DNA from: a virus
Length of the DNA: 35,664 bases
Virus genome (UHGV): UHGV-0379599
Direction: 5' to 3' (one strand)
Shown here one piece after another: positions 32,242 to 33,509 of the stretch. Each line of letters begins with the position of its first letter. The first letter of the stretch is position 1. The translations under genes were made by a program, and so were the position numbers. The notes below the pieces were generated by a model that worked only from the letters and a program-made list of their open reading frames with translations, made no database searches and was not told where the DNA came from.

Positions 32242-32565
32242 GTGAGCACCATTCAAACAGGGATCACAGAGCAGGTTATTGCATGGCTCTTTGACCACCT
32301 GCCAACGGTGTATGCAGTAGGCGCGGCGGTCAGCATTTCCGCGCTGATGAGTCTTTATGACGGACGAACACTGGTTCAGACCGTAACGGGATCGCTGGCG
32401 TGCGGCGTTCTTGCCATGGCCGTGGCCGGGTCGTTGCGCTTCTTCGGTTTTCCTGAAGATGCCGTGACGTTTATCGGCGCATCAATCGGTTTTATGGGGG
32501 CAGAGAAAGCACGCGACAAGGTTATTGCTGCCTTTAATCGCAGGGTGAAGGAGAAGGACGAATGA
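32242..32565 (+). CDS. Putative holin (GTG start; two or three predicted TM segments), not P2 Y-like
   Basis: Hydrophobic 107-aa ORF directly upstream of and overlapping the endolysin gene; GGGGGAG SD before GTG 32242; charged C-terminus. Confidence 0.5.
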   Translation: MSTIQTGITEQVIAWLFDHLPTVYAVGAAVSISALMSLYDGRTLVQTVTGSLACGVLAMAVAGSLRFFGFPEDAVTFIGASIGFMGAEKARDKVIAAFNRRVKEKDE

Positions 32566-32954
32566 GCAACACATTTAAATTCAGCAGCCGGAGCGAAAAG
32601 AATTTGCAGGGCGTAAATCCTGATCTGGTGAAAGTGACCAGACGGGCACTGGAAATTTCGGAAGTGGATTTTGGTATCACCGAAGGGTTGCGCAGCCGTT
32701 ACCGCCAGAAGCAACTTGTGGCCACAGGTAAGAGCCAGACCATGAACAGCCGCCACCTTACGGGACATGCCGTGGATGTTGTGGCTTATATCGGCAGCCA
32801 GGTGTCATGGGAATGGCCGCTGTACGAAAAAATCGCAGCAGCATTCAGACAGGCCAGCCGGGAACTGAATATTCCGGTGGAATGGGGCGGCGACTGGAAG
32901 ACCCTGAAAGACGGACCGCATTTTCAGTTACCACACGGAGCCTATCCGGCATGA
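32562..32954 (+). CDS. Endolysin, putative M15-family L-alanyl-D-glutamate peptidase
   Basis: 130 aa with the SRH...HLTGHAVD(V)... pattern typical of Zn-dependent phage peptidases; position in the lysis cassette. Confidence 0.6.
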   Translation: MSNTFKFSSRSEKNLQGVNPDLVKVTRRALEISEVDFGITEGLRSRYRQKQLVATGKSQTMNSRHLTGHAVDVVAYIGSQVSWEWPLYEKIAAAFRQASRELNIPVEWGGDWKTLKDGPHFQLPHGAYPA

Positions 32955-33358
32955 AGCTCTGGCCCACGCTTGGCGTCGCTTTCCTTCTGATTGCCGGATG
33001 GGGAACATCCATGCGTCTGTCGTGGTCGCTGGGCCGGGAGAACGCCAGAAACGAAGCGCAGGCCAGCACCCTGAAAAGTACCGCCGACACCCTGAATATC
33101 ATCAGCGCCGGGGTACAGGATATGCAGCAGGTGCTGGCGCAACTCCGCGTGGAAAATCAGCAACGCAATCAGGACGGAGAGGTAAGACGTGAACAGCTAC
33201 GCAACGATATTGCAAAAGATGAATGCGCCCACGCTTTGCCTGACGCTCGTTTTACTGACAGGCTGCGCAGGCACGCAGAACGCGCCACGGCCAGCGCCGT
33301 CAGTCCGGCTTATATCGCAGACGCTGACCATACCGGTAACGCCTCCCCCCTTCCCTGA
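32951..33358 (+). CDS. Inner-membrane spanin (Rz/LysB-like)
   Basis: N-terminal TM anchor (MKLWPTLGVAFLLIAGWG) then coiled-coil periplasmic domain; ATGA overlap with the endolysin. Confidence 0.6.
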   Translation: MKLWPTLGVAFLLIAGWGTSMRLSWSLGRENARNEAQASTLKSTADTLNIISAGVQDMQQVLAQLRVENQQRNQDGEVRREQLRNDIAKDECAHALPDARFTDRLRRHAERATASAVSPAYIADADHTGNASPLP

Positions 33359-33509
33359 CACTCCCACATGGGGAAATCTCGGTATATGGGGCGACCGCCT
33401 TCTGGATGCACTGGAAACCTGTAACGCTGATAAACGGGCCATTGAATTACTGGAACAGCGCAGGCTGCAACGACTGAACAACGAGGATAACAACCATGCT
33501 GAAAACTGA
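33189..33509 (+). CDS. Outer-membrane lipoprotein spanin (Rz1/LysC-like), overlapping the i-spanin in another frame; start 33189 or 33219
   Basis: Lipobox LLTGC followed by a Pro-rich region. Confidence 0.55.
   Translation: MNSYATILQKMNAPTLCLTLVLLTGCAGTQNAPRPAPSVRLISQTLTIPVTPPPFPDTPTWGNLGIWGDRLLDALETCNADKRAIELLEQRRLQRLNNEDNNHAEN

Follow-up and report, generated by a model that had tools for sequence, protein, structure and literature searches.

A probable three-step lysis cassette with a lambda-S-type holin, an M15 peptidase endolysin and overlapping spanin genes in a P2-like coliphage

Four tightly packed lysis genes on the + strand, at 32242-33509 between tail genes X and R, very probably make up a canonical lysis cassette that works in three steps, set within the late capsid/tail operon of a temperate P2-like coliphage of the P88 type (genus Xuanwuvirus). 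The window analysed is the whole of UHGV virus genome UHGV-0379599 (35,664 nt); all coordinates are window positions, and all features given are on the + strand. The genes encode a holin, a peptidase endolysin, an inner-membrane spanin (i-spanin) and an outer-membrane lipoprotein spanin (o-spanin), and each of the four proteins matches a curated or PHROG profile. The sequence shows directly which genes are present and to which families they belong, along with the catalytic residues, the lipobox, the membrane segments, the overlaps and the start sites. The cassette is already known, in that it is present in published phages and many Escherichia coli genomes.

The left flank is tail gene X (32039-32239), which matches PF05489 (Phage_tail_X) at 70 bits and is 47% identical to P2 X; the right flank is the tail completion gene R (33496-33963), which matches PF06891 at 136.9 bits and is 40% identical to P2 R. 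An initial annotation of this DNA had set a lysis cassette between X and R at 32242-33509; all four genes are found at those coordinates, with profile matches that chance could not produce. The gene junctions consist of a 2-nt gap and of ATGA overlaps at holin/endolysin and endolysin/i-spanin, an arrangement compatible with a single translationally coupled late transcript, and the start of R overlaps the end of the o-spanin gene by 14 nt. The space between X and R is too small for a fifth gene. The search for terminators and promoters within the cassette gave nothing convincing, only one weak + strand hairpin inside the holin gene; no P2-like attenuator or terminator was found there, with fewer sites than in shuffled sequence.

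The holin (32242-32565) has 107 aa, starts at a GTG and belongs to the lambda-S family, class I. It matches PF05106 (Phage_holin_3_1) at 71.1 bits (cut-off 23.8) over residues 7-101, and phrog_126 with an E-value of 1.7e-35; against the stricter NCBI equivalog TIGR01594 it scores 54.5 bits, half a bit under the cut-off of 55.05. An AlphaFold2 model (mean pLDDT 73.5) places helices at residues 20-39, 44-67 and 72-106. By Kyte-Doolittle hydropathy two segments are hydrophobic (20-39 and 43-70) and the third is weakly so, as is also the case in lambda S. The C-terminal tail EKARDKVIAAFNRRVKEKDE is charged, with seven K/R, and the N-terminus is without positive charge; an N-out/C-in orientation appears likely.

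For the holin start there is a rival reading: phage Chuche's GenBank record annotates only a shorter gene of 219 nt, and GTG starts are rarer than ATG starts. On that reading translation would begin at an internal ATG (Met36, 32347), giving a class II-like protein of 72 aa with two membrane helices, and the N-terminus initiated at the GTG would be untranslated. We consider this very unlikely. Homologues with as little as 52% identity conserve the 35 residues before Met36 as protein, and in all homologues at 52-67% identity the aligned start position is the same. Phage SEN4 has an ATG at that aligned position, preceded by the strong ribosome-binding sequence GGGGGAGGG, and the Pfam match extends over most of the 107-aa form, which is the commonest call in the databases; it is the form called in P88 (from the identical GTG), P88_4B11, Shae_phiSM and RefSeq. 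In the window itself a strong Shine-Dalgarno-like GGGGGAG (32229-32235), read from the sequence and falling in the last codons of X, stands 6 nt ahead of the GTG. The homologue starts, the SEN4 ATG with its ribosome-binding sequence and the commonest database call together support the GTG.

The 107-aa holin begins M-S-T-I-Q, without a dual-start motif (Met-Lys-Met as in lambda S), and its homologues are single-start too. A further GTG in frame, upstream at 32227, lacks a ribosome-binding site and would extend the protein by only M-G-G-V-A, which brings no charge. No antiholin is identifiable in the cassette, and lysA is also absent; the holin of this widespread cassette may act without any antiholin.

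The endolysin gene (32562-32954; its ATGA overlaps the holin stop) encodes a soluble zinc peptidase of the M15/LAS type, 130 aa in length. It matches PF13539 (Peptidase_M15_4) at 46 bits (cut-off 25) and phrog_465 with an E-value of 5e-77. Its PDB matches 5opz (ChiX), 8q2g and 23ri have E-values of about 1e-48 at 62-63% identity. In the alignment to ChiX, the SxHxxGxAxD motif (S63-D72, 32748-32777) supplies two zinc ligands, His65 and Asp72; Arg44 (32691-32693), Asp117 (32910-32912) and His120 (32919-32921), the other catalytic residues, fall outside this stretch. Arg44, His65, Asp72, Asp117 and His120 align with Arg47, His68, Asp75, Asp120 and His123 of ChiX, and all five are identical. Their roles were assigned in ChiX as zinc ligands His-Asp-His, catalytic Asp and substrate Arg, and biochemical work established ChiX as a zinc L-Ala-D-Glu endopeptidase (PMC5778951). 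From the 62% identity to ChiX, the endolysin is predicted to be an L-alanyl-D-glutamate endopeptidase.

Hydropathy analysis detects no hydrophobic segment in the endolysin (N-terminus MSNTFKFSSRSEKN). It therefore has no signal or SAR sequence, and it should depend on a hole-forming holin rather than on Sec or SAR export. Some P2-like relatives might hint at another mode: 3LV2017 and phiT5282H pair small HP1-like holins with lysozymes that carry about 36 extra N-terminal residues, and by analogy the cassette could combine a pinholin with a SAR endolysin that Sec exports and membrane depolarisation sets free. The probability of this is practically nil, as the sequence contradicts it: besides the N-terminus just noted, the alignment of the endolysin to soluble crystallised enzymes already begins at residue 5, and the holin belongs to the lambda-S family, a large-hole former.

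The i-spanin gene (32951-33358, with an ATGA overlap at the endolysin stop) encodes an Rz-like protein of 135 aa that matches the Rz-like spanin profile phrog_214 over residues 2-134 (E-value 4e-41). It has an N-terminal membrane helix at about residues 3-23 (hydropathy), a helical periplasmic domain and a cysteine at position 92. Weak matches are to DUF2570 (20.1 bits, below the Pfam cut-off) and to TIGR03495 LysB (16.7 bits, cut-off 92.75); RefSeq names it a DUF2570 protein.

The o-spanin (33189-33509), an Rz1/LysC-like lipoprotein, has 106 aa if translated from GTG 33189, which is preceded by GGAGAGG (33176-33182) at a 6-nt spacer, or 96 aa from the alternative ATG 33219; either may be the start. 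An N-terminal extension with K/R is conserved among homologues at 68-79% identity. The protein matches PF23793 (LysC) at 48 bits (cut-off 27) and phrog_3001 with an E-value of 1.8e-24. Read from the sequence, a lipobox L-T-G-C (33255-33266) follows a hydrophobic signal region as LLTG|C26-A, with the lipobox cysteine at position 26 of the 106-aa form; Cys26 and Leu23 are invariant in an alignment that includes P2 LysC, and Cys78 is conserved. Because the residue at +2 is Ala and not Asp, sorting to the outer membrane is predicted. The mature part is proline-rich, with 9% Pro in the protein and a PPPFP motif. The o-spanin gene lies in the +1 frame relative to the i-spanin gene, shares 170 nt with it and runs 151 nt past its stop. 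That Rz/Rz1-like genes overlap here in different frames had been proposed before, and the two spanin profiles, the lipobox and the frame offset of 1 agree.

Frameshifted database alleles, recorded as fusion or read-through proteins, trace to a C6 homopolymer within the spanin overlap (33345-33350). Among complete E. coli genomes the tract is C6 in 401, C5 in 16 and C7 in none. We considered it as a phase-variable or frameshift site and rejected this, given the rarity of C5 and the absence of C7; decay or assembly error is the simplest account. The i-spanin gene ends CCC-TGA-C (33353-33359), where a +1 slip of prolyl-tRNA from CCC to CCT at a weak stop could make a programmed fusion of 185 aa (i-spanin 1-135 joined to o-spanin 57-106). 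This is extremely unlikely, as C5 alleles of the nearby tract account for the 185-aa proteins in the databases, and the overlapping o-spanin frame for the local sequence conservation at the i-spanin stop.

In the proposed mechanism, the 107-aa lambda-S-type holin would first build up harmlessly in the inner membrane and then, at a time set by its sequence, trigger to form large non-specific holes. The 130-aa M15 peptidase, signal-less and prefolded in the cytoplasm, would exit through these holes and cleave the L-Ala-D-Glu bond in the stem peptides of peptidoglycan. The i-spanin in the inner membrane and the o-spanin in the outer membrane would already span the periplasm, and once the wall meshwork was gone they would fuse the two membranes. 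How large the holes are, which bond is cut, when lysis occurs and that the membranes fuse are points taken here from the protein families; timed lethal hole formation that frees a cytoplasmic endolysin, for example, would be expected of a lambda-S-family holin. P88 is inducible and lyses E. coli (PMC5285337; PMC6456863), and the P88 cassette is 98.4% identical to the one in the window.

The kinship of the endolysin to ChiX raises a further possibility, namely that lysogens use the cassette for secretion by holin and peptidase (type 10 secretion, as with ChiWXYZ), releasing protein from a sub-population of cells besides releasing phage. ChiW, too, belongs to the lambda-S holin family and has one start only (PMC4259817), and in Yersinia loci a related M15 peptidase is found together with an Rz1-like gene and a holin resembling lambda S. 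We nevertheless judge this very unlikely: the phage is intact and inducible, the genes belong to its late morphogenetic operon, where their stops and starts overlap and essential tail genes flank them, no cargo gene adjoins them, and neither a promoter-like site nor any sign of expression apart from the late operon was found. Phage lysis in three steps is the reading that we retain.

These four genes also occur, in unchanged order from X to R and with essentially no difference, in other Xuanwuvirus phages: P88, P88_4B11, 500465-2, 503458, 520873, Chuche and PhiR44_2 are 98.2-99.5% identical in nucleotide sequence over 32033-33509. Of 5,426 complete E. coli genomes, about 1,000, or roughly a fifth, carry the cassette. 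A literature search on Xuanwuvirus returned no paper on the lysis genes; the P88 paper mentions a conserved 'lysin' and nothing more on them (PMC5285337). The o-spanin is unannotated in the phage GenBank/RefSeq records examined for Xuanwuvirus, and in E. coli RefSeq genomes it is called without a signal peptide or with a mere stub, i.e. truncated at the N-terminus; the holin is truncated in the Chuche record. The small gain from this analysis is thus one of annotation, for an o-spanin missing or truncated and a holin shortened in a very common E. coli prophage family, and its importance beyond such housekeeping is slight. As a separate matter, scanning low-GC cargo genes with PADLOC yielded coiled-coil noise and nothing else.

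Exchange of the lysis module had been suggested from the difference to P2 alone, and related phages add firmer support. In the Citrobacter phage Shae_phiSM, of the same genus, the segment equal to window positions 32543-32971 is swapped for an endolysin with GH108 and PG_binding_3 domains, while the DNA on the two sides is 97.2% and 97.9% identical. The endolysin gene alone has been exchanged; the holin, i-spanin and o-spanin proteins are 90%, 91% and 96% identical to those encoded here. In SEN4 a holin of 55% identity stands beside a GH24 lysozyme, and the spanin differs; further combinations are found in 3LV2017 and phiT5282H, with their small HP1-like holins and lysozymes. The M15 endolysin itself adjoins P2-Y-type or lambda-S-type holins elsewhere, and has relatives in the unrelated phages phiP27 (80% identical) and RB49 (63%). 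Relatives of the spanin part were found only in other P2-like phages. These comparisons support the view that P2-like phages swap holin and endolysin genes individually in the X-to-R slot, and the cassette illustrates such one-at-a-time swaps clearly, the best case being P88 versus phiSM with their 97%-identical flanks.

P2 carries Y-K-lysA-lysB-lysC in this same X-to-R slot of its late operon. For the flanking proteins L, X, R and S, identity to the P2 counterparts is 26-47%, whereas pairwise BLASTP of the lysis proteins gives E-values of 6.2 for Y, 0.5 for K and 2.1 for LysB. When the whole window was searched by tblastn with the P2 proteins Y, K, LysA and LysB, nothing came out with E < 0.06, and LysA had no match whatsoever. 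The initial annotation held that the cassette differs from that of P2, with a hydrophobic GTG-start holin unlike Y and a Zn-dependent peptidase in place of a K-type lysozyme, and it proposed HMM searches as a check. Those searches assign the holin to PF05106 and not to PF04550, the family of Y, and the endolysin to PF13539; together with the PDB matches this makes the enzyme an M15/LAS peptidase, neither muramidase nor transglycosylase, without similarity to K. The claimed difference therefore stands for the holin, the endolysin and the missing lysA. It does not extend to the spanin layout or to the o-spanin family, which are P2-like: in P2, too, lysB and lysC overlap and the o-spanin gene, in the +1 frame, extends into R, and both o-spanins belong to the LysC family (30% identity to P2 LysC by BLASTP, E-value 4e-5). 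For the i-spanin, the match to the LysB profile is weak but co-linear, and profile-profile comparison with P2 LysB was not significant (hhalign probability 4.8%, from a shallow alignment), so that there is no demonstrable similarity between the two. The overlapped spanin pair is a type common to other P2-like phages.

The S-R-Rz-Rz1 cassette of lambda follows the same holin-endolysin-spanin logic. Its holin is of the same Pfam family and the same length (107 aa) and is co-linear with ours, at 23% identity over 60 residues, and the sole cysteine here, Cys54, aligns with Cys51 of lambda S. Differences are the dual start of lambda S, its endolysin, which is a transglycosylase where ours is a peptidase, and its o-spanin gene, which is fully embedded in the i-spanin gene whereas the one here overlaps and extends past it. 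The endolysins of T5 (2mxz, matched with an E-value of 9e-23) and of RB49-like phages (8q2g, 23ri) have the same M15/LAS fold family and are likewise small single-domain soluble enzymes, although these phages are unrelated and virulent and use different holins.

A related system outside phages is Serratia marcescens chiWXYZ, a chromosomal chitinase-secretion operon and not a phage late operon. The zinc and catalytic residues of ChiX are identical to those of our endolysin; the spanin homologues ChiY and ChiZ follow, with the lipoprotein and the membrane-anchored spanin in separate genes according to the paper. A contig search for chiWXYZ returned no Serratia marcescens locus, and ChiW, ChiY and ChiZ are likened here by the papers' descriptions. 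With an endolysin so close to ChiX, P88-type prophages are a natural phage system to set beside it when secretion by holin and peptidase is studied.

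The lysis genes lie between the tail genes X (32039-32239) and R (33496-33963), which, like the head completion gene L (31536-32039), match their respective P2 families in Pfam and PHROG scans; from L through to the tail and baseplate genes S, V and W, 3′ of R, genes are densely packed and all on the + strand. The cassette consists of a 107-aa holin with a GTG start (ORF 1, 32242-32565), a 130-aa endolysin (ORF 2, 32562-32954), a 135-aa i-spanin (ORF 3, 32951-33358) and, in the +1 frame, an o-spanin (ORF 4, 33189-33509). The span 32242-33509 of the initial annotation matches the holin start and o-spanin stop exactly, and Pfam and PHROG HMM scans place all four ORFs in lysis families. 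A 2-nt gap separates the X stop from the holin GTG, ATGA overlaps join ORFs 1 and 2 and ORFs 2 and 3, ORFs 3 and 4 overlap by 170 nt, with ORF 4 extending 151 nt past the end of ORF 3, and R starts 14 nt inside the 3′ end of ORF 4.

ORF 1 matches Pfam Phage_holin_3_1 (the lambda S family, 71 bits) and the holin family phrog_126. The putative GTG start at 32242, proposed from the outset, is well supported because homologues down to 52% identity start in the same alignment column, the 55% identical SEN4 holin has an ATG at the equivalent position preceded by GGGGGAGGG, and GGGGGAG lies 6 nt 5′ of the GTG in the window. On the same evidence the 72-aa holin call of phage Chuche is a truncation: in its record (L005, 615-833, corresponding to window 32347-32565) the gene is annotated from internal Met36 and the first membrane helix is lost. 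AlphaFold2 (18 homologues, mean pLDDT 73.5) predicts helices at 20-39, 44-67 and 72-106. The holin has a basic tail and an N-terminus devoid of positive charge; a lambda-like dual start, sought in the alignment with homologues, is absent.

ORF 2 matches Pfam Peptidase_M15_4 (46 bits) and the endolysin family phrog_465 (E 5e-77). Three solved structures are matched at 62-63% identity (E about 1e-48): Serratia ChiX (5opz), the L-Ala-D-Glu endopeptidase 8q2g and the M15C protein 23ri; the T5 endolysin is also matched (E 9e-23). The ChiX zinc ligands His68, Asp75 and His123, catalytic Asp120, and Arg47 (PMC5778951) align with identical residues His65, Asp72, His120, Asp117 and Arg44. These matches, and the lack of similarity to P2 K, uphold the reading of a peptidase-type endolysin rather than a K-type lysozyme. 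Hydropathy along the endolysin revealed no hydrophobic segment, so it is predicted to be a cytoplasmic enzyme dependent on a large-hole holin.

An overlapping Rz/Rz1-like pair had also been proposed, and ORF 3 indeed matches the Rz-like spanin family phrog_214 (E 4e-41; Pfam DUF2570 weakly, 20.1 bits, under cut-off) and ORF 4 matches Pfam LysC (Rz1-like, 48 bits), phrog_3001 and phrog_456. The i-spanin has a hydrophobic N-terminal anchor and a single periplasmic Cys; the o-spanin lipobox reads L-T-G-C26 with Ala at the next position, its mature part is rich in proline, and Cys78 is conserved. As its start we favour GTG 33189, with ATG 33219 a possible alternative, because GGAGAGG lies 6 nt upstream of the GTG and homologues (68-79% identity) also have K or R at the position of the lysine in the resulting signal peptide.

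A C6 homopolymer (33345-33350) lies within the spanin overlap. Among complete E. coli genomes, 401 have this tract as C6 and 16 as C5, and none has C7. The 185-aa fusions in databases (P0089, P0092 and others) join i-spanin residues 1-133 to o-spanin residues 55-106 via a C5 allele, and other database spanin proteins run into the third frame; such frameshift alleles are probably decay or assembly error. The i-spanin stop context, CCC TGA C (33353-33359), is formally liable to +1 frameshifting, which would lead into the o-spanin frame.

Over 32033-33509, identity is 99.5% with Xuanwuvirus P88_4B11 and 98.4% with P88, a plaque-forming, inducible phage (PMC6456863), and 13 further phage records match at 95% or more. 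The cassette occurs in 1,008 of 5,426 complete E. coli genomes (coverage at least 80%), and RefSeq names all four genes in E. coli genomes. Only annotation details remain: the holin truncated in one record, and the o-spanin missing or truncated in public records. The o-spanin is absent from the annotation of all genus records examined (P88, P88_4B11, Chuche, Shae_phiSM, Entero_P88). In RefSeq E. coli genomes lysC is annotated but N-terminally truncated: in O26:H11 11368 the annotated protein has 65 aa and begins at an ATA codon 3′ of the lipobox, and elsewhere it has 89 aa.

Elsewhere in the window, gpD (11189-12430) and the integrase (15664-16806, - strand) lie on either side of an island of low GC (about 0.40) that encodes a 356-aa PIN_12-domain protein (12604-13674, +); this protein looks like accessory cargo, and PADLOC gave no match to it. 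A 319-aa ParM/StbA actin-like segregation protein (23466-24425, +; PF06406, E 6e-82, and PF21523) is encoded 3′ of a large 955-aa ORF (20522-23389); such cargo is unusual in a P2-like phage that integrates. A second tail-fibre-like gene (3892-5334, +) of low GC (0.41-0.43) with T4 gp34/gp37 trimerisation domains lies 3′ of a 773-aa ORF (1283-3604), probably the main tail fibre, and a tail-fibre assembly gene (Caudo_TAP) comes after it, which suggests a mosaic host-range module.

Exchange of lysis modules is evident among relatives. Citrobacter phage Shae_phiSM, which belongs to the same genus, is 97.2% identical to window 31401-32542 and 97.9% to 32972-34700, while 32543-32971, the endolysin with about 7 codons on each side (holin 3′ end, i-spanin 5′ end), is replaced (L002, its record, 2011-2650) by a GH108 + PG_binding_3 endolysin; between P88-type phages and Shae_phiSM this is a clean replacement of one gene. 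SEN4 has a related holin alongside a GH24 lysozyme and a DUF2514 spanin, and in the P2-like Klebsiella phage 3LV2017 and Enterobacter phage phiT5282H a related i-spanin occurs together with an HP1-like holin and a lysozyme. The M15 endolysin stands in the order L-X-holin-endolysin-R in Enterobacter, Dryocola and Citrobacter genomes; in Burkholderia and Achromobacter it adjoins holins of the P2 Y type, in Yersinia those of the lambda S type. It is also found in the unrelated phages phiP27 (80% identical) and RB49 (63%).

The flanks are homologous to those of P2 (X 47% and R 40% by BLASTP; L 38% and S 26% by tblastn against the whole window), whereas P2 Y, K and LysB have no detectable similarity to the cassette proteins or to any other part of the window, nothing in it corresponds to LysA, and Y belongs to PF04550, a different family from Phage_holin_3_1. 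On these comparisons the holin, indeed unlike Y, and the endolysin are of types foreign to P2, with lysA missing. The claimed difference from P2 does not extend to the spanin layout or the o-spanin: comparing profiles of the i-spanin family and LysB gave nothing significant, but the o-spanin is 30% identical to P2 LysC, in the same Pfam family, so that the arrangement of the spanin genes is P2-like, as is at least the o-spanin. The initial observation is confirmed and its interpretation supported, for a cassette that is ordinary and previously described; the likeness of lambda-type M15-peptidase lysis cassettes to Serratia chiWXYZ is already published.
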